Assembly (NCBI GenBank): GCA_963843575.1 | Contig: CAWJKZ010000017.1 | Location: 260,734-324,733, forward strand | Origin: an uncultured Acidobacteriota bacterium | GTDB lineage: Bacteria; Acidobacteriota; UBA6911 | Direction: 5' to 3' | DNA length: 64,000 bases | In this document: one piece after another, positions 7,081 to 26,720 of the stretch | Layout of the letters: each line of letters begins with the position of its first letter | Numbering within the stretch: position 1 is the first letter of the stretch | Position numbers and translations under genes: made by a program | Notes under the pieces: generated by a model | Databases searched by the model: none | Seen by the model: the letters and a program-made list of their open reading frames with translations, nothing else | What the model was told of the DNA's origin: nothing

Positions 7081-7263
7081 GAATCCCTCAGTGGGCAGGC
7101 GGTGTGGAGGCCGGAACGGGGACTGCCACGGAAGACACTGGGCACACGGACTCGGCCCGGCTTCCGTGTCCTTCATTGTCTTCCGTGGCAAGTTATTGAT
7201 TCCCGGCCAGTCAGGACCGACTTGGACTTTGGGCTTTACCCGGCGGTTGCGGGCAAAACGGGG

Positions 7264-7954
7264 CTATTCGGGGAGAACAAGCCGGTATCCGACCCAGGGC
7301 TCGGTCAGAAGGTAGCGGGGCGTAGAAGGGTTGCGTTCGATCTTCTTGCGCAGCTGATTCACGAACACGCGCAGGTACTCGACCTCGTCGCGGTAATCCG
7401 GCCCCCAGACCGCCTGCAGAAGCCGGGCGTGCGAGATCGGGATGTTGGGGTGGGCCACCAGGTACTGGAGAAGGTCGAACTCCTTCGGGGTCAGCCGCAC
7501 CTCGCGCCTCGCCCGCCGTGACGCGCCGCGTGGTGAAGTTGACTTCGACCTCGTCGAATCGAACCAGCTGCGGAACGCCGGCTCCGGCACTCGCGCGTCT
7601 CAGCGCCGCCCGGATGCGGGCCAGCAGTTCCGGGAAGCTGAAGGGCTTCGTCACGTAGTCGTCGGCCCCCGCGTCGAGGGCCTGCACCTTGTCCGGTTCG
7701 CTGTCCCGGACGGTGAGCATGATGATGGCTCCGTTGAAGCCTGACCGCAGCGAGCGGCAGGTCTCGATCCCGCCGATCCCGGGCATGTTCATGTCGAGCA
7801 GGACGAGGTCGAGTCTCTCGGCCCGCACGCGTTCGAGCGCCTCTTCCCCGTTGCGGGCGTCGTCGACCTCGTAGCCCTGAGAGACCAGGGCGGTGCGCAG
7901 GACGCGCCGGATCTGCGGGTCGTCGTCCACCACGAGTATGCGTCCGGAACTCAT
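7264..7954 (-). CDS. kdpE: KdpE-like OmpR-family response regulator (frameshift near 7520)
   Basis: ILVVDDD, LLDMNMPG, GADDYVTKPF; winged helix LTPKEFDLL...YLRVFVNQLRKKIE...TEPWVGYRL. ATG overlaps the kinase stop. Confidence 0.85.
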
Positions 7955-9428
7955 GCTTCCTCCCGCTGCGGCGCCTGATCGGGAATCGCAGGACAAATTC
8001 CGTCCCGCGCTCGGCGCTGCTCGCGACCGCCGATGGTGCCTCCGTGCGCCAGCAGGATTTCCCGTGCTATGGCCAGCCCCATGCCGGTGCCGAGAACGTG
8101 CTGCCCCACATTCGGACCGCGATAGAACTTGTCGAATACCCGCGCCTGCTCTTCGGCGCGAGAGCGGTTCGCCCCAGTTGTGCACCCCTATTTCGACCAC
8201 GCCGCCGACCGCCTTCGCGCTGATCCCGACCGGGGACCGTCGCGCCGAATACTTGACGGCGTTGTCGAGCAGCTGCCGGAGAGCGACCTGCATCAGTTGC
8301 AGATCGATCTCCACGGGGGGCAGACCCGGCGCTATCGAGAGATCGACGGCGCGCCCGTCGCGTCCGAGCGACATCTGGTCCAGCGCGCCGCCGATCAGGC
8401 CGGAGACGGAGTGCGCCCGCCTGTTGAGATCGACCTTGCCCGCTTCGATGCGCGCGAGGTGCGTGGTCTCGGTCACGAGCCTGTTCAGTCTCTCCGCTTC
8501 TTGGTCCACGACGGTGAGGAGTTCCTCCCGCTGCTTTTCGTTTATGTTGCCGCCGGAAAGAAGGGCCGTCGTCGCCCCCTTGATGGACGTCAGCGGTGTC
8601 TTGAATTCGTGCGCCAGCGCATCGAGCAGCGTGGACTTGAACTCTTCGCTCTGCCGGACAGCCGCGGCACTGGTGGCGATCTGGTGGCTGCGCGCATTCT
8701 CCAGCGTAATCGCGATCAGGTTCAGCAGCGCCTGGACGGCCGGGTCCGGCGAGGTGCTCCCCGCCAGAAGAACGCTCCCGATGCACTTCCCGCCCGGACA
8801 TGAGCGGACGGATCATGCTTTCGCTCTCGGGCTGATCCAGCGGAGTACAGTCCCGGGCAGCCACTTTCAACCGGAGTTCCAGATCCGTCATGGGGCACTT
8901 CCCGGCCGAGTACACCGCGCGCCGCGCGGCATCGAAGATTGCGACGCCCCGGGCGGGGTAGATCCGCAGCACCTCGTCGGCGACCTGCGCGGCAATCGAA
9001 GGATTCGGCTCGATCAGCATGATGGCGCGGCTGAGTTCGTAGAGCCGTTCCACCTCGAGCCTCCTGCTGGTCGCCTCCGCCGCCCTATGCCTGGCAGCAG
9101 CCGAAAGCTCACTCGCAATCAGCGCCGTCGCCAGGAAGGCGAAAAACGCCACCCAGTTGTGAGGGTCGCTGATTTCCCATGTCCCGATCGGCGGGAGGAA
9201 GAAGTAATTGAAGCAGAACGCAGCCGCAATCGCCGCCGCAACGGATTCGTAGAATCCACCGTACGCCGCAGTGACGAGCACCTCGATCAGATACGCAAAA
9301 CCTGCCGTGCTCGCGTTGACGGGAATGGCGAGGGTGAAGACTGCAGTCGCACCCACTACACTGCCCAGCGCGGCCATTCCAACAAGCATCGTCCTCGTGA
9401 GGTGAGAGTGGCGTGTCCGTCGAGGCAT
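7951..9428 (-). CDS. kdpD: KdpD-like sensor histidine kinase, short form: DUF4118 TMs, GAF, HisKA, HATPase (several frameshifts)
   Basis: CFNYFFLPP...WVAFFAFL TM block, ERLYELSR, LLDALAHEFKTPLTSIK, QLLDNAVKYS, GTGMGL spread over three frames. Confidence 0.8.
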
Positions 9429-9725
9429 CTTGTCCGTCCGCTTCGGCTCCGTGGTATCAAACCGGAAGCAAGGTGGCGCGGCACCGCCGCACAACCTATA
9501 CAGTACACTTGAAGGTCAACGCGATAAAACAGCTGGTTCCAGGAGATGAGCTGCAGAAGACCCGGATGGGGAGTGCAAAAGCGTTGTTTCGGACGCGACC
9601 GGTCCCTGGCTGTAGTGAGGGGAGCCAATGATCAGGGGGTGAACTTGCCGCGTGGTTGCGCCGGGTGCCCTCGAACACAGGGACACCGCGCTGTCGCTGC
9701 GCCGGCTCGGTTCGCCTCCCGGGCC

Positions 9726-9963: not shown

Positions 9964-11061
9964 CTATTTCTTCAGAATCCGCAATGCGTTATCCCGATAG
10001 AGCTTTTTGAGAGTGGCATCGCTAAGCCCTACTCCGGAGAGGGCAAATCGCGTAGTTTGCCACATCCCAGGCGTAGAAGTGTTCGTCGAGCGTCTCCCAG
10101 ATATGGAATGAATTCCGATACATGGGCAGGCTGTAACCCTGGTCGGTACCCCAGACCAGGCGGTCAGCGTACTTCTCCATAAACTGCTTTGCGAACCTGG
10201 GGATGGCTGCTACATACGCTTCTCTCTGGGATACGTCGGCATACAGGTTTGGATACTTATCAAGCATTCTTCCGAGCTGATTCAGATCGTATGTCTGGTT
10301 CATGAAATGGCAGGCGACGAAAGTCGTTCGCGGATGTTTTTTCACGGCGCTTTCCAGGATAGCTCCCATTTCTTCAAGGTTCAAAATGTTCCGGCTTATT
10401 GTCGAGCCGGAAATTGAGTAGCCTCGAACAACAGGTCATTGTGATCGTCCATCGGTTCGTACATCCATTTCGGATCTCCCATGTGGACGTTGATCGGCAG
10501 TTTGAGGTCGGCAAGTTTTTCCAGAATAGGATCCATGCGCGGATCGTCGAGGTGCATTGGCGGGGTTGTACCGCGCATATCCGGCTCCCTTTATCACTGA
10601 TCTCGCCGACGCCCTTGGCGCCGAGCTTCACGCATCTTTCCAGTTCAGCTATGGTCGAAGCAGGGACGTAGCCTGAAAAATCGAACCCGCACCACAGTTC
10701 GATGCGATCGGGGTATTTTCCGAAAACGGCCGCCAGGTCATCGAATGCCTTCCCTGTACCGCAAAAGAGAATGGTTTTTTGAATGCCACATTCATCCATG
10801 TTTTTCAACAGCTCGGCAGCGGCCTTATTCAAATCGCCGCCTCCGCGAGGGGCATGCATGTGCATGTCAATGGCCGGATACTTGGCCTTTAGAACCTGGG
10901 TCTGGGGCGTCTTAAAAATGGATTGCGGTCTGTAATCCTTCAGAAGCAGCGTGTCCTGCAATCCCGGCTGCTCTGAATTGACGTTGCTGCGCCTGCGAAA
11001 CAAGAATGATTACAGAACACAACAATGAGAATAGTAAACTTTTCAATAGTAGTTTTTTCAT
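9964..11061 (-). CDS. Amidohydrolase_2 family metallo-hydrolase, secreted (multiple frameshifts)
   Basis: IDMHMH, GAKGVGEISDKG, PINVHMGDP, FVACH, RLVWGTD and LKKLYRDNALRIL segments across frames; visibly lower GC than its neighbours. Confidence 0.8.
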
Positions 11062-11405: not shown

Positions 11406-14400
11406 TTAGGTGCGGGGCGGCGATTCCTCCGCCCCCTGCCGCAGTTCCCACGGCCGGCCCGAGACGAGGTGGGTCCCGCACACGGTGACGGCTTCGTTCA
11501 GCTCGTCGTCCGTCAACGCGGTGACGCGCAGGCCCGTGATGCGGGCCAGCACCGCGTCGAGACTCGATCCGTCCAGGAGCGCCAGCGGCAGCAGCGCCTT
11601 CAATCCCTCCCAGTCCGAGTTTTCCGGCGGCCACGACCAGCGTGCGGAAGTAGAGTCGAGGAATGCAATGCGCATTTCGCGATCGGACATGGCGGCGAAT
11701 TCATCGAGCACGAGCTTGAGGCTGGGCACGTCCCGCGCCAGCCAGCCCCGGCAGGCTTTGACCAGGCGCACCCGGTCCTCGCGGAACTTCGGGTCTCGAA
11801 CATTCGACGCCCTCTTCAGTGCCAGGTCGGCCAGAAGCTCGACCCGGCCCTCGGGGTTGCCGATTTCAATGCAGCGGTTAGCCAGCGCCATGTAAGCCAT
11901 GCTGATGTAACCAGAGTAACCGCTGGCAAGGGCTTCGGCTTCCCCTATCGCACAGAACGCTTCGGCTTTCTTGCCCTGCCGAAAAAGAGCGGCGGCGCGA
12001 GCGGAGCGTTCCCGCATCCTCGTGCCCCAGCGGTCGCAGGCGGCGCGTGCCTTCCCGAGATAGGCGGCCAGGACCGGGGCTTCCCGGTTGCGGCGCCCGC
12101 ATTCCGCGAGCAGGACTGCGGCGAGGTCAAAAGTAAAAGTGACCCCTTCCCCCTGCATCGCGGCGCGCAGAATGCGACGGAGTCTCTGTCGGGCCCACGC
12201 CGGATCGGGCACCGCAAGCACGGCGAGGCTGATTGCCAGGAACGCGATGTCGCGGTAGCGAGGGTAGGGGTTTCTTTCGGCAATATCCAGCGCGTCCTCG
12301 ATTTGGCCCCGGTCGGCGGAATCCCCGGTCAGCTTGCGCAGCGGCCCAAAATCCATGTCGAGACGCCCCGTGCGCTGCTCGTCCACCAACGAATCGTCGC
12401 CGTAGCCCGTGTCCGGGAGCAGCCCCTGCAGAACCTGCATCCTGAGGCTGTTGATGCGTTCGTCGAGAGTCGCGATTAGTTCCTGCCGCTTCCGGGCGTC
12501 GAGTGGTGCCTCTTTGCAGCACTCGACCAACTTTCCCGCTTCGGGACCGCGGCTGAACGCTCCGATCCAGACGGAGGGGGCGTCCGCGGTCGGCGCGAGG
12601 ATGCGGGCAGCCCGGGTGAGCAGTGTCTCGCACAGGGGAAGAGTGTGGCTTGGCTGGATCGCGCAGGTCGCGGTTGCGGCCGTTACCGCCTCCTCGAGCT
12701 TCCCGGCCAGCGCCGCCTCCCAGGCAAGATAGGAGAAGACGACCCCTTCCCAGGCTCCCGAATGGCACAGCAGCCTCGCCCAGGCGAGCGCTTCGGTAAA
12801 ATCTCCTCTGTCGACGCACTTGAGAAGGTCCTCGGTGAGGCTGGCTCTGGGAGCCGTTTCACGGTAGGCGCCTGCGCAAGCCAGGGCCTTGACGGTGTGG
12901 TCCTGCTCGAGGGCGACATGCAAGGCCAGCCGCAGATCTCCGAGGGTGTTCTCTGGACGGCCGAGGATCTCTCTCTGGGCCGCTCGGAATTGCGGATCGA
13001 GCACGAGGGAGTAAAGCTTGTCGAGCTGTCCGGCCGCCTTGAGGTGCTCGGCGTAGTGGCTCAGCGGGTAACTGCTCCGGTTGCGTTTCCAGTCGGCGCA
13101 GTAGGCCAGCAGCCTGTCCCGATACACCTCGGTTTTGATGCACTTGCGCATGTACTGGCGCAGGCGCGGGTGGGCGAGGGCATAGCCATGAGTGTCGTTG
13201 CCCACGACGAAGCGGCGCACCCGCTGCAGGATGTCCTCGAAGAAGTCCTGCCCCCAGTCGTTTACGAGGCTCGGGTTCACAGCCTCGAGATCCGACCTGA
13301 ACATCGGGCCAAAGCAGGCCGTGAGGGTCCCGAAGAGATCGCGCGCCGGGGCGTCGCCGGCGAGTTGCTTGATTTCCTCCCACCACTGATCGAGATAGTT
13401 CGCCAGCCCCTGCGGTTGCGCGGCGAGATTCGCAGCGGTCAGCCGGCCATCGGCCAGGTCCTCCGCGAGCAGGCGCATGTAAAACGGATCGCATCCGAGG
13501 GTCGGATCGCCCTGGTACGAGGAGATCCGCACAACCTCGTCCAGCGCCGCGGAGTCGTCTGCGACCGCAGCGGCGGAGGTCCCGGCGGCACGAAGGACCG
13601 CGGAAACATCGGCGGTTGTCAGGCCCCCAAGTGGCAGGTGTTCCGTCTGGTGCGGCGGCATGCCGTAAATCGCCGACCAATCCTGACCCACATCCCGGAC
13701 TGTCAGGATCAAGTGGAGCCTGGCCGGAAGATGGCGGCTAAGGTACGGCCTCAGCTGCCAGGTCGTGACCTCGTCCAACCCGTCGATGACCAGGACGCGC
13801 ATGCAGTCCAGGTACTCGTCCAGGAGCTTGTGATACAGCGCCCGCAGTTCGTGGACCTTTTCGGGGATCGGGTAGGTGTGAGCGTGCCACTGGGCCATCT
13901 GCTGCACCACGTTGCGCAGGAAGAACTCCTCGCCGAGGCTTCCCGTACCGTAGAGAGGAGTGAAAAAATGGTAAGCGAAAGCCTCCGGATTACGTTTGAC
14001 GATATTGGCCATCAGGGCCGTTTTGCCGAATCCGGCCGGGGCGGTGATCATCAGATACCCCCCCGCGGGCCCGGCAGCGAATTCTTCCACGCGGGCCTGG
14101 ATGTCTTCGCGGCCCGCGAAAAGAGCGGTCCGGTCGTCCAGGAGGGGGGCGAAGACCTCGCGCAGGGCTGGCTTGACCGGTGAGTACCGTTCTTCGGCCG
14201 CCGCAACCGGGGGCCCGATGCGCCACTGGTAGTGACAAACCGCGATGTCCAGGGCGAAGCGGAATGGCCTCTCCGGGCAGTCCAGCTGCTCGCGCCCGGC
14301 GGCGGCTGCGCGCTCGAAGGAAAGGACCCCGGGGTCCGTGCGTCCCGCGGCTTCGGGGACCCCCACGGGCAGCACCTTGCTCTGCGCGAAACCCGTGCAT

Positions 14401-14903
14401 TCGACCGTGATGTAAGCGCCCCCGTCGACCAGCTCCCGCAGCGGGCCTGGATCGGTCATCGGCCCGGCCTGGAACAGTTCGCGCTCGTGCCGGTCGAGCG
14501 CGTTCCAGTCGCGCAGGCCGTGAGTGAGTGAGACGGCGGCAAACGCGTGCCCCTCGGTCACCACCAGAACTGGAAGCAGCTCGTTGCCCAGGCAGAGACC
14601 GCAGAAAAGTACGGCGAGGTCGAGGCACGTTCCCTCGCGGGGCGCCTCCAGGACGTCGGCAGGCCGGCGGATCGGCTGCAGGGCATCGGAGGGATGATAC
14701 ATCTCGGCGGCATAGCGGATCTGCTTCGCCAGGAGAGCACCGTAGATGGCTTCGACCAGACGGCGGCGTCCCTCGGGCTCGGCTGCCAAGTCCAGGCGGT
14801 TCACGGGCAAGCGGAGTAGTGTGACGGCGTCAGGCGTCACGAAACGCGCCAGTCCCCTCTCATCGACCTTCGACCATTCCCTCGGAAACTCGGCGACCGG
14901 CAC
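11406..14903 (-). CDS. NLR-like protein: N-terminal transglutaminase/papain-like domain, STAND (NACHT-like) NTPase, helical repeats
   Basis: GTG after AAGGAG. GTCLDL...EGHAFAAV...VECTG putative C-H-E triad; Walker A APAGFGKT; Walker B VLVIDGLDE; winged-helix HPRLRQY; Ala/Leu-rich TPR/ARM-like C-terminus. Confidence 0.8.
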   Translation of the reverse strand: MPVAEFPREWSKVDERGLARFVTPDAVTLLRLPVNRLDLAAEPEGRRRLVEAIYGALLAKQIRYAAEMYHPSDALQPIRRPADVLEAPREGTCLDLAVLFCGLCLGNELLPVLVVTEGHAFAAVSLTHGLRDWNALDRHERELFQAGPMTDPGPLRELVDGGAYITVECTGFAQSKVLPVGVPEAAGRTDPGVLSFERAAAAGREQLDCPERPFRFALDIAVCHYQWRIGPPVAAAEERYSPVKPALREVFAPLLDDRTALFAGREDIQARVEEFAAGPAGGYLMITAPAGFGKTALMANIVKRNPEAFAYHFFTPLYGTGSLGEEFFLRNVVQQMAQWHAHTYPIPEKVHELRALYHKLLDEYLDCMRVLVIDGLDEVTTWQLRPYLSRHLPARLHLILTVRDVGQDWSAIYGMPPHQTEHLPLGGLTTADVSAVLRAAGTSAAAVADDSAALDEVVRISSYQGDPTLGCDPFYMRLLAEDLADGRLTAANLAAQPQGLANYLDQWWEEIKQLAGDAPARDLFGTLTACFGPMFRSDLEAVNPSLVNDWGQDFFEDILQRVRRFVVGNDTHGYALAHPRLRQYMRKCIKTEVYRDRLLAYCADWKRNRSSYPLSHYAEHLKAAGQLDKLYSLVLDPQFRAAQREILGRPENTLGDLRLALHVALEQDHTVKALACAGAYRETAPRASLTEDLLKCVDRGDFTEALAWARLLCHSGAWEGVVFSYLAWEAALAGKLEEAVTAATATCAIQPSHTLPLCETLLTRAARILAPTADAPSVWIGAFSRGPEAGKLVECCKEAPLDARKRQELIATLDERINSLRMQVLQGLLPDTGYGDDSLVDEQRTGRLDMDFGPLRKLTGDSADRGQIEDALDIAERNPYPRYRDIAFLAISLAVLAVPDPAWARQRLRRILRAAMQGEGVTFTFDLAAVLLAECGRRNREAPVLAAYLGKARAACDRWGTRMRERSARAAALFRQGKKAEAFCAIGEAEALASGYSGYISMAYMALANRCIEIGNPEGRVELLADLALKRASNVRDPKFREDRVRLVKACRGWLARDVPSLKLVLDEFAAMSDREMRIAFLDSTSARWSWPPENSDWEGLKALLPLALLDGSSLDAVLARITGLRVTALTDDELNEAVTVCGTHLVSGRPWELRQGAEESPPRT

Positions 14904-14968
14904 CGCTTTCTCCTTGACCCATCCTGCACTTCCCCGCCAAGGGGAACCTGTCGAGTGCAGAGGGTGCG

Positions 14969-15017
14969 GAAAAAAACATCGCCGCCGCGTCGCGGACTGG
15001 GCGTCCCCGTGGCGGCG
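14969..15017 (-). terminator. Intrinsic terminator between the lipase and STAND genes
   Basis: Minus strand GC stem cgccgccacg...cgcggcggcg followed by ATG and a T-run. Confidence 0.6.
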
Positions 15018-15027
15018 TCATTCTCTT

Positions 15028-16476
15028 TTACTGCTTCAGAATCTCGAATATGTCGTGCACCGCAGGGGGCGATGCGGGACCCGCTTTCCGCGTGCCGACC
15101 TCCACCCGGTACAGCCCGGGGGGCATCTGGTCACGCTCGAGCACCCACTCGCCGTCCAACTCCCGGAACTCCGTCTTCACTGCCGGTCCGCCCGCGAGAG
15201 GCTGGATCCGGGCACCCATTCCACCCGGGTCGTCCCCATAATTCACGAGCCGAGCCCGCATGAGCACCGGATCCCCCGCCACATAGATATCCTCCAGGTC
15301 GAGGGCGATGGCCGCCCCCTGCTCCCTGTCCGCACTGATCTCCGGGCCGCGAATCGCCCCCAGGCCCGGGATCTGCATCTGCCTGAGCCGGTTCCGGAGC
15401 TCGTTGAGCATCTGCAGATTGTTTTGCAGGCACCCGTGCCGTTCGGGTATGTAGCTCTCCCTGTACTCCGCGGAAAGTTCGATCGGAATGGCCGAGAGGT
15501 ACGGAACTGTCCCGTCGCCGTCGTCGAGCAACGGGTCGATCCCGGACGGGAGCGTGCGGCTGGTCACGACGCGCCCATTTGCTAGGCAAGCCGATTGCAG
15601 AGTCGGCTGGCGGGTCCCTACAACCGGCACGATCCGGTATCCGGCCTTGGCGTACTCCGGATCGCCCTGATGGAGCGACACGGCCTGCTCGATCTCCCTG
15701 TGAAACTCCAGCGCGTCCTCCGCCTTCTCCCTGGCGATTCCCGGAACGCCGTCCGTTTCGGCGATTCTGTTGACGGAGCCCCCGCACTCGAGGACTTTGT
15801 AAATCGGGAGCAACTGGTAGACCGACGTGAAGGACCGCATCATGTCGGTCAGATCGAGAAATAGCTTCTTGTAGCCGTTGGCGAGGAAGTCGACGGCGTT
15901 CACGGAACCGCGATACGGGGTGCCAAAGGTCACGAGCGCCCTGCAGTCCCTCCAACCCTCCAGGACTTCCAGGTAGTAGCGTGCCACCAGCCCGCCCATG
16001 CTGTGCGCCAGAAAGATGACCTTCGCATCGGCGGCACCGCTGTGCTTGCGCCAGAGGGGGAGACGGTCCCGGATGAAGGCCTGCAGGCGCCTCGCCGAGC
16101 AACGATTGTCGCGGCGCCAGTCGTAAGGGAATTCGAAAAAATTGGCGGGATTGCCATTCTCGATACTGCCGGCGACAACCTCGAACTCACCTGCGACGAG
16201 CCTCGACATCCCGGAGTACCCGTCGATCTTCACCAGGCCGGGGACCAGGTGGGCGTCGGCCATCACCCGGACCGCCCGCACCCCATCCCCGAGGTCGTCA
16301 ATCGCCGGATCGTCCCCTGAGAGTTTCAACCGCTGCAGCGCCGACCCCAAGGTGACAAGTGCGCTCCATGCGGCCTGACCCGAGATTGCCCAGAGATCTT
16401 TCCCATCTTTCTGAAGCACGCTTCCCGTGATCCCCGGCAGCAGAATCACGAGGTCCCGCATGCGCAATTTGGCCAT
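15028..16476 (-). CDS. LCAT/PGAP1-like alpha/beta-hydrolase (lipase/acyltransferase) with C-terminal beta-sandwich
   Basis: LPGITGS, FPYDWRR, LAHSMGGL nucleophile elbow, GTPYRGS, DGDGTVP, ERHG; no signal peptide. Confidence 0.88.
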   Translation of the reverse strand: MAKLRMRDLVILLPGITGSVLQKDGKDLWAISGQAAWSALVTLGSALQRLKLSGDDPAIDDLGDGVRAVRVMADAHLVPGLVKIDGYSGMSRLVAGEFEVVAGSIENGNPANFFEFPYDWRRDNRCSARRLQAFIRDRLPLWRKHSGAADAKVIFLAHSMGGLVARYYLEVLEGWRDCRALVTFGTPYRGSVNAVDFLANGYKKLFLDLTDMMRSFTSVYQLLPIYKVLECGGSVNRIAETDGVPGIAREKAEDALEFHREIEQAVSLHQGDPEYAKAGYRIVPVVGTRQPTLQSACLANGRVVTSRTLPSGIDPLLDDGDGTVPYLSAIPIELSAEYRESYIPERHGCLQNNLQMLNELRNRLRQMQIPGLGAIRGPEISADREQGAAIALDLEDIYVAGDPVLMRARLVNYGDDPGGMGARIQPLAGGPAVKTEFRELDGEWVLERDQMPPGLYRVEVGTRKAGPASPPAVHDIFEILKQ

Positions 16477-17503: not shown

Positions 17504-20500
17504 TTATGACACTCTCTCGAGCACGTAGTTCAGAACCATCGAATTCTGCCGGGGCTCAAGGTAGCCACACAGCGCGGGCTGGAGAACTGGGTCCCGGAGC
17601 CACAGGGCCGAAGGGGCGGACACCCACCTGCCGAGCATCGTCTGGTCGTCCACGATCCGCATCTCCTCCGCTATGCCCGCCGAAGCCACGAGTCTCGCGA
17701 ACTCGTCGGTCCAATAAGTCGGGCCGCCTGCAGGGCCGAGTCCAAAGCTAAACCTCGCTTCTGCGCCGTTGGCTGTGGGCAGGAATCTGACGTGGAAGGC
17801 GACCGGGTTGACCTGGTTGAGCAGGCTCACGTCCGGCCTGGTCAAAAAGAGGATGTGCCCTCTCCACTCTCCCGCGATTTCGGTCGGTTTCGGGACGCGT
17901 GCCCGGTCGCCGGTGAATATGGCCAGGTGATCGGGGACGGACATGTTCTTGAAGGGATAGTTGTGCCGCGCCATCACGAACGTCGCAAACTCGAGACCCG
18001 TCGGAAACGTGCCCAGGTGCATGACCCCTATACAGTCGTTCTCGCCAACCGCTTTGATGACGTCGTAGACCATCCGGTACGGCGCATTCGTGTATGTCAA
18101 AAGCAGGACGTCGTCTCCTGCCTTGACGAACTTGCGGTTGTCGTCTGGGTAGCGCAACTGCTCGACGACGGGCCTCCCGGGCAAGCACTGAAGCTCGTAA
18201 TTGACGACGTAGCCTGAAAGCGACCCGCTCCGCATCCCGTCGAAGCGCTTCCAGAAACTCCCCCCGGTGTATCGCTCGGCGGGGGGGCGTTCACCCAGCG
18301 CCAGGGCGGCGGCACGCAGGCGTTCCTCCCACCCGAGCAGGGTGTCCCGCGCGAACGATCCTTTCCAGAAAGAGTCGCGCAGGATGCGGCGATTCGCGTA
18401 GTCGATCCGGACGCTCCCCCGGTTGAGCAGCGTTTCGAGCGGCCGCGTAGGGGTCTCGCGCATGATGGTCTGCAGTTCCGGCGTCGGGCGGGTGCTGAAA
18501 TAGTCGGGGATCTCGGCCCCGCGCAGGACCGCCTCGCGCACTTCTTCCGCGGCAAACCCGCCCTGAGCGCTGAGGGGATCGTACTCACGCATCACGAACT
18601 GGTTGGTCAACGCCAGGAACCGGAGCAGGCCGCGCGCTTTCAGGAGGGGATTGTCCGTGCCGGTCACCTCGAAGGAGCGCAGAAAGGCCGCGAAGCTGCC
18701 TGCCGCCTCGATGTCTTCGAAGGTCCGGAACCTGAGCAGCCCGGAGCCCAGGCCGGCGCCGGATGCCGTGTCGGAAAGCCGGCAGTAGAGCGTGGTGTAG
18801 TCCCGCAGGATTTCGCGAATCCCGGCAATGCCGCCGCGCTTGTTCTTCTGCATGTACTTGCGTCCGTGCAGCAGGTATTCCGTGCGTGCGGGATCGCGGA
18901 AATAGACGTGATAGAGCATTTCCGCTTCGCCGGTCGCCGGGTTGATGCGCAAGTAGTTGAAGTAGCTTTTGTCCGCATTGATCTCGAAGGTTGCGGGGCC
19001 CTGTCCTCCGAAGTCGCCGAAGTGGATTGTCCCCCGCATGCGCGCTTCGTGTTCGGGGCTTTCGAAAAATTCGTTCAGGTCGCGCACCGTCATCCGGACC
19101 TGGAAACTGCAGGGCAGCTTCTGCTCCGGCCCCGAGACCCTGGCTTCGATTGCCCCATCCCCTTCGAATCCCGGCGGAGGCAGAAACCCGGGGAAGTAGT
19201 GGCCGGTCATTTCCTCGTCGAACGTCATGCCCAGCCCATCCGGGAGCCGGACATCGAGGAGTGGGGCCAGGAAGGGGGAGGGCGGCGGTTTGTCGGGGCC
19301 GCTCCTGCGCAGCGTGTAGTAGAAGGAAAACTGCGGCGCTCCGCCGGCGCCGGACTCGAGCTGGAAGAGGCCGATGGAGCTCGGTCCAAACAGCTGCGCG
19401 AGTCCCGGGGGAGACGCCGTGGTGTACTTTCCGACCATGAGATCCGGACCGATCGCGCGGATCTCGTCGTGGAAGGGGGTAAAGTCGTTGAGTTGGAAGT
19501 GGTCGTGCGCGAACACGGGTTCGGCCATGCCCTCGAGCAACCCGAGCAGCTGGTATCGCGTTTCGAGGCGGCCGTCTGGTTTCAGCTCGAAATTCAGGTA
19601 CGCCACGACGCCGGTGTTCGCCGCGTTGGAAACCATGCGCATCTCCCACAGGCCGGCGAGCTGCTCTTTGGCCGGGGCCGGCGCGCTCTCGTAGAGACGG
19701 CGGTGATCTGCCACCGTCGCCTCGTCGAGGCCGTAAACCCGTGTCATGGGGAAGGTGAAGAGCCGGAGACCGTTCGGGAATTCGCCCAGGTACACCCTGC
19801 CGATCAGCAGTTCCTCGTTGACGATCTTGAACACATCGTAGAAACCGCGCCAGGGATCGTCAGGATAGCGCAGCAGGATGTACTTGCCCGGTTCCAGGGT
19901 GGCGGTCCTGGTGGTGATGTGGATCTCCTCGAGCGTGTTCCTGGCGCGAATGCGGCCGTCCGAATCGGATGTCTCGCCCGTGATGCCCCCGGCAGTGCGC
20001 GTAAACCGCTTTTTAAACCCGGCGAAGAATGCCGTCGAGAACTGGTTCAGGATGTGGCGTCGCGGGAAGAAACCCTTCCAGCACGTGTCATTCCTGATAA
20101 TGCCCCGATCGCCATCGATGCCCACTTCGCCGCCGTTGACGATGGTCGCGACACCCAGGCTCTCGACGCGGCTGAAGATACGCTCCAGGTCCGCTTCCTT
20201 GTAGTTGAGCACCTCCAGCGGATCGAGCCCGGGCACGGTGATCCGGGCAGGGCGCTCCGGATAAGCTTCCCCCCCGACCGAACGGACGAGCCTGTCGGCG
20301 ATCCGCTCGGAGAGGGCCGAGATCGTGAGGAACGGGTTCACCCCCAGTGCCGAGGGGATAAGTGAACCGTCGGCAACGAACAGCCCCGGGTGGATGCTGC
20401 CGTCGCCGGCGAACACCCTCCCGAACTCGTCGGCCGCCCCCTGCATGTAGTCCTCGCCGAGGGGGCAGCCGCCGAGCGGGTGGGCAGTGATCAGGTTGCG

Positions 20501-21970
20501 CACCGTGACAAAGTTCCACAACGGGTTCGTCATGAAGCTGCCGCCGAGGGCGCGCGCGTGGCGCCGGATTTCCTCGTTGATGAGGGTGAAGACCGGCTGG
20601 CGCCCGACATTGTCCCAATCGACGGCCACGTGCTCGTCCTGTTCGAGAAAACTCCTTTTCAGGTGAAGCATCCCCTTGGCGTCGTCGCGCCCCATGATCA
20701 GGTAGAGCATGGTGTGGTTGAGCGCGTTGTGTTCCTGGTAGACATCGAAGACGTTGTCGCGCCGGCGCCGTTCGAACTCCTCTTTTTCGTCTCCCACGTC
20801 CATGTCCTCGGCGCCTCCGAGCGCGGCCACGGAGCCGAAGGCGAGCATCGCCGATCCCACGTAGGCGCCTGGGAACGAGAAGTCCTCGACGGCGATACGC
20901 TGTTCCAGCGGCAGGCTGGAATCGTACTTGACGCACCCGACGATGCTTGGCCCCGGTGCATTGCCCTGCTTGCGCCACGGGTGCATGGGGTCGGCGCCGA
21001 ACCCGAGCGTGTTGACCTGCTGATCCGCGTTGTAGGCCAGGGCGAAGAAATCGCCGTTCCCCGTGAACTGGGTGCCGAGTTTCGGCGAAAGCGACAAGCC
21101 GTGCGCTTCGGATTTCAGCAGGATCTCAACCGTACCCAGCGAGCCTGCAGCCAGGATCACGTTGGCGGTCTCGAGACTGAATTTCTCGGTGGACGCCGGT
21201 TGGAGGAAGCGCGTGCCATGAATCCGCCAGCCTCCGCCCGGCAGACGCTCGACCCGGTCAACCTGCATCCGCGTAAATATGTCGGTGCCGTTTCGGTGCG
21301 CCACGGGCAGGTAGTTCATATAGAGAGTGTTTTTCGCACCCGTGTTGCACCCTGTGACGCAGTCGCCGCAGTCTATGCAGGGAGTCTGGTTCCGGCCGTG
21401 CGGATTCACCCCGTCTATGTCGAAATTGACCGTGAGATCCAGGCCGAAGGCGCGCCTGCCGATTTCGCGGGCGCGCTTGTCGAGGGCTTTGACCTTCAAC
21501 AGGCAGTCCTGCTGGTCCGGATTCGAGCGCGGGTGGGGACGCGCGGCGAGCATTTGCCTCGCCTTGTCATAGTGCGGGAGCAGTTCCTGCAGCGTGATAT
21601 TGCGCGGCCAGGCGACCTGGTCAAAAATGTCCGCATCGGGCACGATCGCCACGTTCGCGTTGATCAGCGACGTGCCGCCCAGACCGGACCCCTTCAGTAC
21701 GGATATGTCGGGGAACACCAGGAAATCGTAGAGCCCCAGCGGATTGAGAAGCGGATTGCGGACGGCGGAGAGGATCTCGTTCAGCCGGTCCGGGAATTCG
21801 CCCGAGACCCACTCCCTTCCGCGTTCGAGCAGGCAAACGGAGGGCTTGGGAGACGCGTTGGATATCCGGGCAGCCGTGATCGCGCCACCATATCCAGACC
21901 CGATCACCGCAAAATCGTATTTCTGACGCCTCCGGCTCCAGTCCTTTGACAGGCGTTCGTCTGCGGGCAT
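17504..21970 (-). CDS. Cholesterol-oxidase-like GMC oxidoreductase with about 900-aa C-terminal extension
   Basis: VIGSGYGG FAD motif, LGGTSLINAN, CIDCGDCVTGC, AHPLGGC, ADGSLIP...GVNPFLTI; extension carries two homologous modules. Confidence 0.9.
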   Translation of the reverse strand: MPADERLSKDWSRRRQKYDFAVIGSGYGGAITAARISNASPKPSVCLLERGREWVSGEFPDRLNEILSAVRNPLLNPLGLYDFLVFPDISVLKGSGLGGTSLINANVAIVPDADIFDQVAWPRNITLQELLPHYDKARQMLAARPHPRSNPDQQDCLLKVKALDKRAREIGRRAFGLDLTVNFDIDGVNPHGRNQTPCIDCGDCVTGCNTGAKNTLYMNYLPVAHRNGTDIFTRMQVDRVERLPGGGWRIHGTRFLQPASTEKFSLETANVILAAGSLGTVEILLKSEAHGLSLSPKLGTQFTGNGDFFALAYNADQQVNTLGFGADPMHPWRKQGNAPGPSIVGCVKYDSSLPLEQRIAVEDFSFPGAYVGSAMLAFGSVAALGGAEDMDVGDEKEEFERRRRDNVFDVYQEHNALNHTMLYLIMGRDDAKGMLHLKRSFLEQDEHVAVDWDNVGRQPVFTLINEEIRRHARALGGSFMTNPLWNFVTVRNLITAHPLGGCPLGEDYMQGAADEFGRVFAGDGSIHPGLFVADGSLIPSALGVNPFLTISALSERIADRLVRSVGGEAYPERPARITVPGLDPLEVLNYKEADLERIFSRVESLGVATIVNGGEVGIDGDRGIIRNDTCWKGFFPRRHILNQFSTAFFAGFKKRFTRTAGGITGETSDSDGRIRARNTLEEIHITTRTATLEPGKYILLRYPDDPWRGFYDVFKIVNEELLIGRVYLGEFPNGLRLFTFPMTRVYGLDEATVADHRRLYESAPAPAKEQLAGLWEMRMVSNAANTGVVAYLNFELKPDGRLETRYQLLGLLEGMAEPVFAHDHFQLNDFTPFHDEIRAIGPDLMVGKYTTASPPGLAQLFGPSSIGLFQLESGAGGAPQFSFYYTLRRSGPDKPPPSPFLAPLLDVRLPDGLGMTFDEEMTGHYFPGFLPPPGFEGDGAIEARVSGPEQKLPCSFQVRMTVRDLNEFFESPEHEARMRGTIHFGDFGGQGPATFEINADKSYFNYLRINPATGEAEMLYHVYFRDPARTEYLLHGRKYMQKNKRGGIAGIREILRDYTTLYCRLSDTASGAGLGSGLLRFRTFEDIEAAGSFAAFLRSFEVTGTDNPLLKARGLLRFLALTNQFVMREYDPLSAQGGFAAEEVREAVLRGAEIPDYFSTRPTPELQTIMRETPTRPLETLLNRGSVRIDYANRRILRDSFWKGSFARDTLLGWEERLRAAALALGERPPAERYTGGSFWKRFDGMRSGSLSGYVVNYELQCLPGRPVVEQLRYPDDNRKFVKAGDDVLLLTYTNAPYRMVYDVIKAVGENDCIGVMHLGTFPTGLEFATFVMARHNYPFKNMSVPDHLAIFTGDRARVPKPTEIAGEWRGHILFLTRPDVSLLNQVNPVAFHVRFLPTANGAEARFSFGLGPAGGPTYWTDEFARLVASAGIAEEMRIVDDQTMLGRWVSAPSALWLRDPVLQPALCGYLEPRQNSMVLNYVLERVS

Positions 21971-22258
21971 GGCAAAGCTCTCCCGAAATGAGCGCTAGAA
22001 ATTGAGGTTCAAGCCAGTTCCCCGAGTAACTGAACGTACTTGTTACAGAATGTGATACCGTGCGCAGCGGCTTGTCAAGCCCGATTGCAGGCTGGAATAC
22101 GATGCCGTTTTTTCGGACGCGGATGGACGCAGGTCCGCGCAGATAGAAAACAAAGGCATTAGTGCCAGGCCGGTGTTCATCTACGTCCCGCTGTTTATAT
22201 TCCGACAATTCTGTGTTACTTCTAGGCCATTCGATTGTCCTCACCAGGAGTGCACGAC

Positions 22259-24148
22259 ATGGCACAGCCGCACGCACGTCGCAGCGCAGTTTCCCCGCCG
22301 GCGTACCGGCGGCTGCGAACCTATGCTTTCGATCCCAGCCTCGTCAAACTCGAGACGGCAGGGCTCAACCTGGCGACCCTCAAGGTCCGGTGGGAGAGGG
22401 ACGCAAAAACCAGGGCCGAACTGCTGCAGCCGGGGCCGGTAGGCGAATACGTGGAGGTCGTGGACTACGACCCGGCGAGCGAATGTTTCTACCTGCCCGT
22501 CGATCTGAACGATTTCCGCCTCGTAGCGCAGGACGGCCTGGACCCGTCGGAAGGCAACCCTCAGTTTCACCAGCAGATGGTTTATGCCGTCTCGATGAGC
22601 ACGATCCAGAATTTCGAGAGGGCGCTGGGCCGCGTTGCCCTGTGGTCGGCGCGCGATCCGGGTGGGAACGCGCGGGGGCGGTATGTCCAGCGCCTGCGCG
22701 TATACCCGCACGCGATGCGCGATGCCAACGCGTACTACAGCCCGGCCCGGAAAGCGCTTCTGTTTGGGTATTTCCCGGCCTCGCTCGAAAACCCGGGGAG
22801 CAATCTGCCCGGCGGGACGGTTTTCACGTGCCTTTCCCACGACATCGTCGCGCACGAGACGACGCACGCGCTGCTGGATGGCCTGCACCCGTGGTTTGCG
22901 GAGCCCAGCAATCCCGACGTGCTCGCATTCCACGAGGCGTTCGCGGACCTGGTTGCGCTGCTGCAGCACTTCACCCACCCGGAAGTGCTGCAGCACCAGA
23001 TCGCCAGGACCCGGGGCGACCTTGCCAGGCAGAACCTCCTGGGCCAGCTGGCGCAGCAGTTCGGTCAGGCCATAGGTCGCTACGGTGCGTTGCGCGATGC
23101 CCTCGGGAGGGTGAATGCCGAAACGCATGCCTGGGAGGTCCTCCAGCCCGATCCGGCCGACTACGCGGCGGCGGCGGAGCCGCACGACCGCGGCGCAATA
23201 CTGGTGGCTGCCGTCTTCGATGGTTTCCTCTCCATCTATAAGGCGCGCATAGCGGATCTGATCCGCATCGCGACCGGCGGCAGCGGCGTGCTGGCCGAGG
23301 GGGAACTGAACGCGGACCTGGTCCGCCGGCTTGCCGAGGAGGCCGCCAAATCGGCGCAGCATGTCCTGACCATGTGCATCCGGGCGCTCGATTACTGCCC
23401 GCCCGTCGATATTACCTTCGGCGAATACCTGCGGGCCCTCATCACGGCGGATGCGGACCTCGTGCCGGACGATGACCGGGGATATCGCCTCGCCGTGATC
23501 GAAGCGTTCCGCAGGAGGGGCATCTATCCCGGCGGCGTGCGCAACCTCGCCGAAGACAGCTTGCGCTGGCATGAGCCGCTGCTGCCCGATTTCCCCGGAT
23601 TCGCCGGCACGAAGCGCACTCTCGAGCTGGAATGGGACCAGAAGACCGATCGATTCGCCGTCTGGCAGGCGATGCAGGCCAACCGCAACGTGATCAAGGA
23701 TTGGCTCGCTTCGGGAGTTCTAACCTGCGACTACGCCGAACAGTTGGGCCTGGCGCTCGGCCGCGATGCCCCGGCCACCATCCCACGCGACAGGAGCGGC
23801 GCCCCCTGCCTCGAGGTTTCCTCCGTGCGTCCGGTCCGGCGCGTCGGACCGGACGGCCAGCTCATGGTCGACCTGGTTGTCGAGCTGACGCAGAAGCGTG
23901 TCGAGTTGCTCGACGAGCGGAACAGGAACTCCGGCACCTTCACGTTCCGCGGCGGCTGCTCGCTGGTGGTGGACCTGGAAGCGTACAAGGTGCGATGCGC
24001 GGTCGCCAAGAATATCCTGAGCGAGCACAGGCTGCGGCGGCAGAGGGATTTCACGGCCGATTCGTCGCAGCAGTCGCTTCACGCGACCTACTTCGGCGCC
24101 GAGCGCGCGGGGGCCGAACCGTTCCTGCGCCTTCACCGCGGTTTGTAG
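22259..24148 (+). CDS. M4-like (gluzincin) zinc metallopeptidase, no signal peptide
   Basis: ATG after CAGGAG; NAYYS, AHETTH (HExxH), FHEAFAD (third zinc ligand), EPHDRG. Confidence 0.85.
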   Translation: MAQPHARRSAVSPPAYRRLRTYAFDPSLVKLETAGLNLATLKVRWERDAKTRAELLQPGPVGEYVEVVDYDPASECFYLPVDLNDFRLVAQDGLDPSEGNPQFHQQMVYAVSMSTIQNFERALGRVALWSARDPGGNARGRYVQRLRVYPHAMRDANAYYSPARKALLFGYFPASLENPGSNLPGGTVFTCLSHDIVAHETTHALLDGLHPWFAEPSNPDVLAFHEAFADLVALLQHFTHPEVLQHQIARTRGDLARQNLLGQLAQQFGQAIGRYGALRDALGRVNAETHAWEVLQPDPADYAAAAEPHDRGAILVAAVFDGFLSIYKARIADLIRIATGGSGVLAEGELNADLVRRLAEEAAKSAQHVLTMCIRALDYCPPVDITFGEYLRALITADADLVPDDDRGYRLAVIEAFRRRGIYPGGVRNLAEDSLRWHEPLLPDFPGFAGTKRTLELEWDQKTDRFAVWQAMQANRNVIKDWLASGVLTCDYAEQLGLALGRDAPATIPRDRSGAPCLEVSSVRPVRRVGPDGQLMVDLVVELTQKRVELLDERNRNSGTFTFRGGCSLVVDLEAYKVRCAVAKNILSEHRLRRQRDFTADSSQQSLHATYFGAERAGAEPFLRLHRGL

Positions 24149-24155
24149 GAGAGTT

Positions 24156-25646
24156 ATGCCACGAACAGATGTGGAGCCTGAAGGCGCGCCCGCCGCCGCG
24201 GCCGGACTCATGACGCCGCCGACCGGCGGCGCGAAAATAAGGATGTACCGGCACGGGTTGGGCGACTGTTTTCTCCTGGCCTTCCCTGCCCGCGCCGGCC
24301 GGCCGTTTTATTTTCTGGTCGATTGCGGCGTCATCCTCGGGACGCCCGACGCTTCCCGCAAAATGCAGGATGTGGTGCGAGACATTGCCGCGGCCACCGG
24401 CGGACGAATCGACGTCGCCGCCGCCACCCACGAACATTGGGATCACATTTCCGGGTTCGCCCAGGCAGCCGAAATCTTCCAGCGAGATCTCAAAATCGGT
24501 CAGGTCTGGCTTGCCTGGACGGAGGACAAGTCAAACCCGCTGGCCCGGAAACTGATCGCAGACCGCCACCGAAAGGTCGAGGCTCTCCGGGGCTTGGTGC
24601 AACACCTCCAAGCCGCGGAATCCCCGGTTGCCGGGCACGTCACTCGCCTGCTGGATTTCTTTGGCGGCCTGGGAGCCACCAGCACGGGGGACGCACTGGA
24701 TGCCGTGCGCGGTTACTCCGAGCAGCCCCTCCGATACTGTCGGCCCGCCGACCCGCCCGCCGCTTTCGGCGATGTTCCCGGTCTCCGCACCTACGTGCTC
24801 GGCCCGCCGGAGGATGAACAGCTGCTGAACCGGGACCTCCCCACCAAGACCGGCAGGGAAACGTATGATGACAGCTCCGTCCCGCTGAACCTGGAAAACG
24901 CATTTCTTGCCGCCGCTCTGCACCGGGACCTCGGGTCTGAACCTGGAATCGTGGAGCGCGAACTGCAGGAACTCAGCCTGCCATTTGACCGCTCGCTGCA
25001 GATCCCCGTCCGCGACGCGAAACGGCTGTCCTTCTTCCGCAGGTACTACTTCGGCTCGGGACGGGCCCACGATCTGGCGTGGCGGCAGATCGACAACGAC
25101 TGGCTCAATGCGGCGGATCAGATCGCGCTGAAGCTTGACAGCGACACGAACAACACCAGCCTAGTCCTGGCGTTCGAGCTGACCGTAAGCGGGAGGGTAT
25201 TGCTCTTCGCTGCCGACGCGCAGGTCGGGAACTGGCTCTCCTGGGGCGGCTTGACCTGGAAACTCACCACCGGCGAGTCTGCAGGCCTGGACGTGACGGC
25301 CCAGGACCTGCTGGCCCGCACTGTCCTCTACAAAGTGGGTCACCACGGGAGCCACAACGCCACCCTGCGGGCCGGGGGCCTCGAGCTGATGCGCAGTCCG
25401 GATCTCATGGCGCTGATCCCCGTAGACTCCGCCGTGGCCCAAAAGAAGAAATGGGATATGCCGTTCCCACCCCTGGTCAACCGTCTTCGCGAGAAGACGT
25501 CCGACCGGATCCTGAGAAGTGACGACGCGGTTGCGCTCGCCCGCCGACAGGTGCCCGAGGACGCCACCGCTCTAATGTGGAGCCGCTTTCAGAAGAGCGT
25601 CGTCGAAACGGACCTCTACTTCGAAATCACAATCGCCGACTCATGA
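24156..25646 (+). CDS. MBL-fold metallo-hydrolase (ComEC/Rec2-like)
   Basis: GLGDCFLL, LVDCG, THEHWDH, NNTSLV, LFAADAQ, KVGHHGSHNAT; 7 bp after the peptidase stop, with a GGAG RBS. Confidence 0.88.
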   Translation: MPRTDVEPEGAPAAAAGLMTPPTGGAKIRMYRHGLGDCFLLAFPARAGRPFYFLVDCGVILGTPDASRKMQDVVRDIAAATGGRIDVAAATHEHWDHISGFAQAAEIFQRDLKIGQVWLAWTEDKSNPLARKLIADRHRKVEALRGLVQHLQAAESPVAGHVTRLLDFFGGLGATSTGDALDAVRGYSEQPLRYCRPADPPAAFGDVPGLRTYVLGPPEDEQLLNRDLPTKTGRETYDDSSVPLNLENAFLAAALHRDLGSEPGIVERELQELSLPFDRSLQIPVRDAKRLSFFRRYYFGSGRAHDLAWRQIDNDWLNAADQIALKLDSDTNNTSLVLAFELTVSGRVLLFAADAQVGNWLSWGGLTWKLTTGESAGLDVTAQDLLARTVLYKVGHHGSHNATLRAGGLELMRSPDLMALIPVDSAVAQKKKWDMPFPPLVNRLREKTSDRILRSDDAVALARRQVPEDATALMWSRFQKSVVETDLYFEITIADS

Positions 25647-26532: not shown

Positions 26533-26645
26533 GTTTTTGCTTCTCCCGAGGATCTTGTCTTTAGCAAGTTTGGGAATGGGCGTGGCACCCGCACACGCCG
26601 GATTAATCTGATGAGAATACACGGCTCGGTCCGTGTCAAGGGTTT

Positions 26646-26709
26646 TGGAGTGCGGCGACTCGCCGCCGCAATGTCGCGATTCGGGGTGGCGCCGAGGCGC
26701 CGCACTCCA
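26646..26709. repeat. REP-like palindrome (GGAGTGCGGCG...CGCCGCACTCC type)
   Basis: 12-bp inverted repeat TGGAGTGCGGCG / CGCCGCACTCCA with inner hairpins, between the CHAT and metacaspase genes. Confidence 0.6.
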
Positions 26710-26720
26710 GATTGCCAACT

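Follow-up and report, generated by a model that had tools for sequence, protein, structure and literature searches.

A transglutaminase-fold domain on a NACHT-type STAND protein and its partner LCAT-like hydrolase gene in an uncultured Acidobacteriota bacterium

The STAND gene and its three modules

The DNA analyzed here, a stretch of 64,000 nucleotides (nt) from contig CAWJKZ010000017.1 of an uncultured Acidobacteriota bacterium and hereafter called the window (all coordinates are positions within it), carries on its minus strand two consecutive genes that form the subject of this report. The upstream gene (15028..16476) encodes a 482-residue LCAT/LPLA2/Tle4-like alpha/beta hydrolase and is separated by a spacer of 124 nt (14904..15027, hydrolase stop to STAND start in the open reading frame (ORF) list) from a gene (11406..14903) that was read as a single ORF with a GTG start, comprising 1165 codons plus a stop, and that encodes a protein of the STAND class (signal transduction ATPases with numerous domains), kept as P0001. 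The strand of the latter gene had not been named in a preliminary description of this DNA.

The STAND protein is composed of three parts, i.e., an N-terminal transglutaminase-fold domain (residues ~8-232; 14208..14882), a NACHT-type STAND NTPase module (residues 256-640; 12984..14138) and a C-terminal region of 525 residues, the presumed ligand sensor (11409..12983). This tripartite layout had been recognized in the preliminary description and it stands, as does every motif quoted there, namely GTCLD (residues 91-95; 14619-14633), GHA (118-120; codons inside 14541-14555), ECT (168-170; inside 14391-14405), APAGFGKT (288-295; 14019-14042) and IDGLDE (373-378; 13770-13787), while the 'helical repeats' assigned to the last ~500 residues were not confirmed as worded, Pfam returning only sub-threshold tetratricopeptide repeat (TPR) matches there.

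A word-indexed search returned 191 homologues of the STAND protein at E <= 0.001 (best E = 6e-240), and the gene is therefore more than a chance ORF. When P0001 was cut into residues 1-255, 256-640 and 641-1165, and each piece was run by phmmer against the best 120 of these 191 homologues, the N-terminal piece was found in 25, the NTPase in 115 and the C-terminal piece in 18 (self-match left out), an unequal sharing which indicates that the three pieces are separate evolutionary modules. Most of the 18 have DUF4062 at the N-terminus instead of the transglutaminase-like domain. Among the same 120, Pfam identified other heads on homologues that share the NTPase, i.e., TIR, DUF4062, trypsin-like, caspase and CHAT domains, as well as other tails, i.e., TPR or WD40, and such shuffling of heads and tails around a shared NTPase is typical STAND behavior. 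That effectors have been swapped on one and the same sensor is clear from P0003-P0013, the closest full-length relatives among the matches listed, which have the NTPase and the C-terminal region in common with P0001 (38-45% identity over ~78% of the query) and mostly carry DUF4062 (PF13271) in the place of its transglutaminase-like head.

The assignment of the central part to the NLR-like (nucleotide-binding leucine-rich repeat receptor-like) STAND NTPases was substantiated by two lines of evidence. In Pfam searches NPHP3_N passed its cut-off (25.5 bits versus 24.8), with NACHT just under (25.6 versus 26.7) and AAA_16 also below cut-off. Furthermore, positions 268-673 of a 26-member family profile aligned to residues 121-532 of Apaf-1, i.e., to its nucleotide-binding, helical and winged-helix domains, at E = 4e-9, the next matches being Cdc6/Orc and a plant resistance protein. 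Both a Walker A motif (APAGFGKT) and a Walker B motif (VLVIDGLDE, ending at residue 378) are present, with G291, G293, K294, D374 and E378 invariant in 26 homologues, and the DGxDE form of Walker B is typical of NACHT. Of 37 proteins that carry the same head, 20 are matched by NPHP3_N and 17 by NACHT. The NTPase is consequently filed as a NACHT-type STAND module, an assignment which, taken jointly with the fold of the head and the gene pairing described below, is held with high confidence.

In the C-terminal 525 residues no Pfam family was found above threshold, only weak TPR matches being returned (TPR_2, E = 0.0049), and the protein atlas gave no lead for this part. Alanine, leucine, arginine and glutamate make up 46% of its composition, which fits helices, and on that compositional ground the region is probably helical.

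The N-terminal domain and its family

The AlphaFold2 model of the N-terminal domain (hereafter N-domain), built from a 26-row alignment, has a predicted local distance difference test score (pLDDT) of 85.5 and a predicted template modeling score (pTM) of 0.86. Comparison of this model with 48,161 PDB representatives by VIA-align returned 38 chains at Z >= 5, of which ranks 1-35 all belong to the transglutaminase/papain-like superfamily (Z 5.3-9.4). The top match is the putative protease 3kd4 (Z 9.4, root-mean-square deviation 3.1 over 130 residues), and further matches include TglA (8.6), the pseudomurein endo-isopeptidases PeiW and PeiP (8.3 and 7.9) and LapG (7.4), while the list also contains axonemal transglutaminase-like proteins, Rad4/XPC, PNGase, 3isr, TG2, TG3 and factor XIII, RavJ, arylamine N-acetyltransferases, TgpA, CPR-C4 and vasohibin. 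As assigned by DSSP on the model, Cys93 opens a helix (93-106), His119 starts a strand (119-129) and Glu168 is located just past another strand (164-167), and this modeled placing corresponds to the layout expected for the transglutaminase/papain fold.

No Pfam family passes its threshold on the N-domain, the only matches listed at E <= 10 being Transglut_core (PF01841; E = 0.071, 13.8 bits versus a cut-off of 23) and the transglutaminase-like DUF553 (PF04473; E = 0.094, 12.6 bits versus 20.5), the latter of which is present at E <= 1e-4 in 3 of 37 relatives of the domain. The leads from the protein atlas, all below 0.9, were DUF553, Transglut_core and DUF4011. When the N-domain was compared by hhalign with 30 genuine Transglut_core segments, drawn from the genome of the window and 20 relatives, its segment eGTCLDLA was superposed on kGHCEYFA (E = 7e-5, probability 63%). 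Judged by these sequence comparisons, the N-domain family is a distant relative of Transglut_core and DUF553 and not a member of either. BTLCP gave no match in hmmscan at E <= 10 and is absent from the 25 most frequent of the 42 families recorded for the 37 relatives, and a PDB sequence search with the whole protein and with the N-domain returned nothing useful, the sole match being an enolase (E = 0.72).

Conservation was assessed in the query and 150 representatives. Gln76 (14676-14678), Asp95 (14619-14621) and His119 (14547-14549) are present in all 151 sequences, Cys93 (14625-14627) in 149, with Ser in the other two, and Glu168 (14400-14402) in 147, with one Asp and three truncated sequences, while Arg79 is kept in 149, and Cys169 and Arg188 in 145 each. 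Cys, His and Glu are furthermore invariant in 37 of 37 genome-derived N-domain ORFs. The combination Gln-Cys-His-acid is the papain-type catalytic set. The model, the fold matches, the conservation and the hhalign result thus all support what had been proposed before, i.e., a transglutaminase/papain-like N-terminus with a Cys-His-Glu triad, and on the two points singled out beforehand the fold was found to be of an enzymatic type and the triad to be kept in homologues.

The same conservation bears on the question of whether the N-domain might be a non-catalytic adaptor that docks the hydrolase onto the oligomerized sensor, in the manner of an effector-associated domain. Inactive binding modules of the transglutaminase fold do exist, Rad4/XPC and menin being in the match lists, and the strict gene pairing reported below also suits docking; however, Gln76, Cys93, Asp95, His119 and Glu168 each recur in 147-151 of the 151 sequences, as is expected of an active site and not of a docking surface, which renders an adaptor role highly improbable. 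A catalytic head is therefore preferred, and it would more plausibly act as a peptidase than as a deamidase, cross-linker or acyltransferase.

An exhaustive phmmer search with residues 1-255 against 1.84 billion cluster representatives yielded an N-domain family of 832 representatives at E <= 0.001, with 266 at E <= 1e-30. Of the best 150 representatives, 149 have the domain starting no further than ~30 residues from the N-terminus, and the regions C-terminal to it sort into 46 similarity groups in these 150. For example, in 17 picked representatives Pfam identified NB-ARC with an APAF1 helical domain, NACHT, nSTAND1/3/5, iSTAND, FGE-sulfatase, TPR with the PIN domain of the TPR-GreAB-C-PIN system, TPR with a PQQ propeller, and ankyrin repeats, while five of the 17 had no match. 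A Pfam census of 37 N-domain ORFs from the genomic loci described below (two of 39 loci were dropped, the ORF filter having found none there) returned, next to the NPHP3_N and NACHT matches given above, AAA_16 (14), HEAT_2 (8), nSTAND5 (7), NCC-H (5), DUF553 (3), FGE-sulfatase (2) and iSTAND (1). The N-domain itself is unannotated in the precomputed Pfam lists of the family members examined, and the source names of proteins carrying it are 'hypothetical', 'ATP-binding' and 'AAA family ATPase'.

The partner hydrolase and the conserved gene pair

The product of the upstream gene matches the Pfam LCAT family (E = 9e-14, 51.9 bits versus a cut-off of 21), with PGAP1 and DUF676 weaker, and has no NCBIfam or PADLOC match. 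Its model (pLDDT 88.3, pTM 0.91, with low-confidence stretches at 32-42 and 376-381) exhibits an alpha/beta hydrolase fold followed by an all-beta domain at residues ~389-480 (15037-15312), an Ig-like beta-sandwich matched by Ig-like domains in Foldseek. The Foldseek matches of the hydrolase are headed by lysosomal phospholipase A2 (2e-12), LCAT (3e-10 to 3e-9) and the type VI secretion system phospholipase Tle4 (6e-10), followed by bacterial lipases. In an alignment of 29 of the 39 hydrolases from the loci described below, partial and near-duplicate sequences having been left out, the catalytic triad of Ser159 (HSMGG; 16000-16002), Asp321 (GDGTVP; 15514-15516) and His347 (ERHG; 15436-15438) is invariant in 29 of 29, together with the three motifs that contain it. 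No signal peptide is evident by eye at the N-terminus. The gene is single-copy in the genome of the window, and its distribution is patchy, since in a sample of 300 further genomes from its phylum none carries a match at E <= 1e-20.

The conservation of the pair was examined by scanning one genome per species (GTDB) with patterns derived from the N-domain alone, which yielded 39 loci from cyanobacteria, actinomycetes, planctomycetes, acidobacteria, Nitrospira, Anaerolineae and proteobacteria, representing at least six phyla. In tblastn searches with the neighbors in the window, the hydrolase was found in 39 of 39 loci (32-62% identity), lying upstream of the N-domain gene on the same strand in 38 of them at a median gap of about 19 nt; exceptions to the common layout are L010, where the two genes are divergent, L013, where they are 5.6 kb apart, and L038, at about 0.6 kb. 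When all 422 ORFs of these loci were clustered, only two families proved widely shared, those of the N-domain protein and of the hydrolase, each represented in 37 loci and followed by a family seen in six. The NTPase block was detectable in 12 of 39 loci and the C-terminal block in none. The hydrolase gene directly upstream, which the preliminary description did not mention, is hence the conserved and near-obligate partner of the N-domain.

The other genes of the island behave differently. The 311-residue protein, the 1488-residue GMC oxidoreductase, the two unknown ORFs, the caspase and the split amidohydrolase were each found in 0 of 39 loci, and 28 tblastn matches of the CHAT-fusion protein of the window sit on the hydrolase gene itself. 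The GMC oxidoreductase, the 311-residue protein, the caspase and the two ORFs are accordingly ruled out as members of the system. The earlier suggestion that the transglutaminase-like head could be the initiator of the island was not supported, in that the other island genes adjoin the domain in none of the 39 genomes. In L036 one long ORF extends over both genes, and a fusion of hydrolase and transglutaminase-like domain was considered there and rejected, as the hydrolase lies in another frame and the long ORF is a high-GC overprint.

A reciprocal test was performed by collecting metagenome loci with hydrolase patterns alone, which returned 66 loci, 22 of them at E <= 1e-40. The N-domain is encoded directly downstream of the hydrolase in three of these 22 close loci (L045, L050 and L063). 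Pfam searches of ten ORFs neighboring the hydrolase in the remaining close loci identified a caspase (C14) directly downstream in L048 and L049, where the hydrolases are 42-46% identical to that of the window, a Peptidase_C25 protein downstream in L053, TPR-CHAT proteins flanking the hydrolase on both sides in L055, a TCAD7 protein downstream and a subtilase upstream in L051, and a NACHT protein upstream in L046. The position of the N-domain is thus taken by clan-CD peptidases in other loci, and several cysteine-peptidase heads have the hydrolase family as a common partner, in agreement with the caspase pairing of Kaur et al. 2020 described below.

These two sets of loci are informative with regard to what the N-domain does. 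It may itself be the terminal effector and target phage or host proteins as a protease, deamidase or cross-linking transglutaminase, with the hydrolase as a parallel effector or accessory and not as its substrate. This would be in keeping with most STAND, Avs and bNACHT proteins, which bear their effector at the N-terminus according to the available text of Kibby et al. 2022, and with the conserved catalytic set and a fold list that holds deamidases/glutaminases and true transglutaminases. A self-sufficient effector, however, needs no partner, yet the hydrolase is kept in 39 of 39 genomes from at least six phyla while everything else changes, and the pairing of the same hydrolase family with other cysteine peptidases argues for a joint function; this explanation is accordingly considered unlikely. 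Still less probable is an acyl transfer with lipidation as its output, in which a phospholipid would give up an acyl chain to the LCAT-like enzyme, for the Cys-His-Glu domain to hand on to a protein or small-molecule target. LCAT is an acyltransferase and is among the best fold matches of the hydrolase, and arylamine N-acetyltransferases (4dmo is described with a Cys-His-Glu triad) and an amide synthase are found among the fold matches of the N-domain at Z 5-7. Nevertheless, its top fold matches are peptidases or isopeptidases (3kd4, PeiW/PeiP, LapG and 3isr), and it is caspase, C25 and CHAT peptidases, not acyltransferases, that fill the place of the domain in other loci.

A complex prediction of N-domain and hydrolase, with alignments for both and without controls, gave a score of 0.02 and a mark of 0.32, which speaks neither for nor against binding. 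No minus-strand terminator-like site was found in the spacer between the two genes (14904..15027), and the counts of the promoter/terminator scan, being no higher than in shuffled sequences, are uninformative.

Proposed function, known systems and neighboring genes

The preferred reading, to which a probability of roughly 55% is assigned, is that the two genes form a cassette in which a sensor-controlled cysteine peptidase works with a phospholipase executioner. The upstream gene would supply a cytoplasmic LCAT/phospholipase-A2-like serine hydrolase, and the C-terminal region of the STAND protein would sense an invader-derived cue, whereupon the NTPase would oligomerize. Oligomerization would switch on the clustered N-terminal thiol-peptidase domains, which would then act jointly with the phospholipase, the most likely form of such action being that the peptidase cuts the phospholipase, perhaps at an exposed Arg-containing linker before the Ig-like domain. 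Membrane lipids would be broken down and the infected cell would die, i.e., the outcome would be membrane damage and abortive infection. Cleavage of the lipase by the N-domain is put forward tentatively, at somewhat less than even odds. The linker in question, between the catalytic and Ig-like domains (residues 366-390; 15307..15381), is a possible processing site to judge by its conserved residues, Gln368 being kept in 28 of 29 hydrolases and I-R-G-P (375-378) in 19-23 of 29.

Several observations weigh against this reading. Peptidase chemistry is not established by the fold, because the latter also houses acyltransferases, deamidases, cross-linkers and inactive binders (Rad4 and menin), and all of these stand in the fold-match lists. 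Z scores of 7-9.4 fall in the range graded middling by the structure-search tool; the uniform fold list counts for more than any single Z, because a best score of 7-8 is common. In a Foldseek search of the N-domain against the PDB one match, an axonemal protein, was returned at E <= 0.001, the remainder being weak, although many (menin, TglA and CPR-C4) are of the same fold. The hhalign alignment spans the segment around the Cys alone and stops before the His, at the 63% probability given above. With regard to the gene pair, the gap of 124 nt in the window is longer than the usual ~19 nt, and the reverse association is loose, three of the 22 close hydrolase loci carrying the N-domain and four more carrying clan-CD peptidases, the rest being too short or yielding no clear ORF. 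Of 10 hydrolases with various partners, 8 have the linker Arg irrespective of the partner, which is suggestive but weak. Finally, 221 pattern matches in viral contigs included no relative, so that a phage link was not found there, and PADLOC-DB v2 returned no system match, the STAND protein giving only GajB P-loop noise (E = 0.011).

The last two results also bear on whether the cassette is antiviral at all. It might instead serve developmental or kin-directed cell death, or a regulated remodeling of membrane lipids, in bacteria with complex lifestyles, and its carriers are indeed mostly filamentous cyanobacteria, actinomycetes, planctomycetes and acidobacteria, the group in which such systems are placed in the consulted parts of Kaur et al. 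2020; no prophage link was found either. Against this, the domain shares architectures with experimentally supported defense families (bNACHT, and ProA through its N-terminal module), the distribution is patchy, and a caspase and a CHAT-hydrolase fusion are encoded near by in the window, which together make a function outside defense rather improbable. A conflict or defense role of the peptidase-phospholipase cassette is considered likely.

Transglutaminase-like heads of this kind are not without precedent. The preliminary description had called the effector unusual, which is an overstatement, since transglutaminase-like papain-like peptidase heads on bacterial NACHT, STAND and conflict proteins are already listed in the available portions of Kibby et al. 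2022 (bioRxiv 10.1101/2022.07.19.500537) and Kaur et al. 2020 and 2021, and the architecture as such is not new. The bNACHT proteins of the former study exhibit the same order of N-terminal effector, NACHT-type NTPase and C-terminal sensor; the text available from that study describes no tested member with this head and no partner hydrolase gene, whereas the head reported here, for which Pfam has no model, is accompanied by a phospholipase gene in an obligatory manner. A parallel for the pairing is found in the VMAP/MoxR-vWA ternary systems, in which, according to the sections consulted of Kaur et al. 2020 (PMC7159879), the caspase head 'always' has a neighboring alpha/beta-hydrolase gene. Both arrangements combine an N-terminal thiol peptidase on a regulatory protein with an adjacent alpha/beta-hydrolase gene (39 of 39 loci here), while they differ in that the head of the present system has a transglutaminase fold and not a caspase fold, its scaffold is a NACHT STAND protein instead of VMAP, and neither MoxR nor vWA genes adjoin it; neighbor clustering returned no third conserved gene, hence no MoxR-vWA-VMAP core. 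In the same sections, transglutaminase-like peptidases appear only as rare VMAP heads and are not tied to the hydrolase.

The N-domain resembles the transglutaminase-fold cysteine peptidases LapG/BTLCP, PeiW/PeiP, 3kd4 and 3isr in its fold and in the order of Cys (at a helix N-terminus), His and acid, yet is only 8-17% identical to them, and its acid is Glu, not Asp, placed inside an invariant E-C-T-G that contains a second conserved Cys. The presumed executioner resembles Tle4 and CapV in being a membrane-lipid hydrolase, Tle4 being among its best fold matches (E = 6e-10). CapV, which belongs to CBASS (antiphage signaling based on cyclic oligonucleotides), is a patatin-like enzyme that a cyclic nucleotide turns on, whereas the enzyme here has an LCAT/LPLA2-like fold and would be switched by a peptidase domain that a STAND protein carries.

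A relationship with a validated defense protein was also noted. The NCBIfam model of the anti-phage protein ProA (NF058533) matched STAND residues 47-231 with its profile positions 159-311 of 1903 (E = 3e-14), at 51.3 bits versus a cut-off of 1500, and as only this one N-terminal module is common to the two, the STAND protein is not a ProA. ProA is described in the accessible text of a secondary paper (PMC13700489) as the single-protein 'Prometheus' system of Pseudomonas aeruginosa, with DUF4011, a DNA2-like nuclease-helicase and DUF3320, all domains being needed.

As a separate observation, the genome of the window contains two more sequences with this module. A 454-residue paralogue on contig C24 (L001:1123-2487) consists of an N-terminal zinc ribbon followed by the ProA N-terminal module and covers ProA profile positions 1-327 (E = 4e-75); it is without Pfam annotation, and its transglutaminase-like core keeps the Gln, GTCLD and GHAF and has Asn in the position of Glu168. 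Directly after it comes the gene of a zinc-ribbon Ser/Thr kinase (the kinase was read by eye). The second, ProA-N-like copy on contig C14 (L002/L004) has internal stops (three TGA and one TAG), looks disrupted, and also adjoins a zinc-ribbon Ser/Thr kinase gene.

Work on bacterial NLR-like proteins treats them as ancestors of animal and plant immune receptors or as analogues of these, and their known outputs are mostly nucleases, NADases and pore-formers. If the preferred reading is correct, a sensor-bound cysteine peptidase acting via a separate phospholipase adds a two-step protease-to-executioner output to these, closer to the logic of apoptosome and caspase. In addition, a sizeable Pfam-unannotated family of 832 cluster representatives is defined here; its active-site signature is clear, its partner gene is near-obligate, and it is linked to the N-terminus of ProA. 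No paper on a transglutaminase-like domain paired with an LCAT-like hydrolase was found in open-access full text, supplements lying outside this search, and the supplementary tables of Kaur or Kibby may record the pairing. As far as searches of open-access text reach, the delineation of the N-domain family, its near-obligate LCAT/LPLA2-like pairing, the way in which caspase, C25 and CHAT heads are equivalent to it as partners, and its kinship with the ProA N-terminus are apparently new.

A broader and more doubtful extension is that thiol peptidase and LCAT-like phospholipase may constitute a portable, protease-licensed executioner cassette, with interchangeable heads (transglutaminase-fold, caspase, C25 and CHAT) on many sensors (NACHT, NB-ARC, iSTAND, FGE-sulfatase and TPR-GreAB-C-PIN), where each head would activate the lipase encoded with it by cutting the conserved Arg linker between the catalytic and Ig-like domains. 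If true, this would be the bacterial equivalent of cascades that run from caspase to executioner, the cell being killed by hydrolysis of its membrane lipids, and the presence of this head on Prometheus ProA would hint at proteolysis in that system too.

A second combination of cysteine peptidase and hydrolase is located 11 kb from the STAND gene (25669-32138, minus strand). It comprises the gene of an 1805-residue protein (26721-32138) in which two stretches of DUF7379 are combined with an LCAT-like hydrolase domain and with a CHAT peptidase, followed by a caspase (Peptidase_C14) gene (25669-26838). Between the latter and the GMC oxidoreductase gene are two adjacent ORFs of 637 and 496 residues on the plus strand (22235-25646), neither of which has a Pfam match at E <= 0.001. 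The 1488-residue GMC protein (17504-21970, minus strand) is GMC oxidoreductase/cholesterol-oxidase-like in its first ~560 residues (NCBIfam E = 3e-53, below cut-off), while the remaining ~900 match no family; its gene is co-directional with the cassette, yet not conserved beside it (0 of 39 loci). Just downstream of the STAND gene, an Amidohydro_2 gene (10022-11003, minus strand) is split into ORFs of 209 and 120 residues, i.e., by a frameshift or as a pseudogene, in the stretch of lowest GC content in the window (0.56 at 10-12 kb versus about 0.64 in flanking bins). Further along, in the 7211-9512 region, the ORFs of a response regulator (7211-8509) and of a DUF4118 sensor (8067-9494) have >400 nt of the same strand in common, their starts probably being over-extended.

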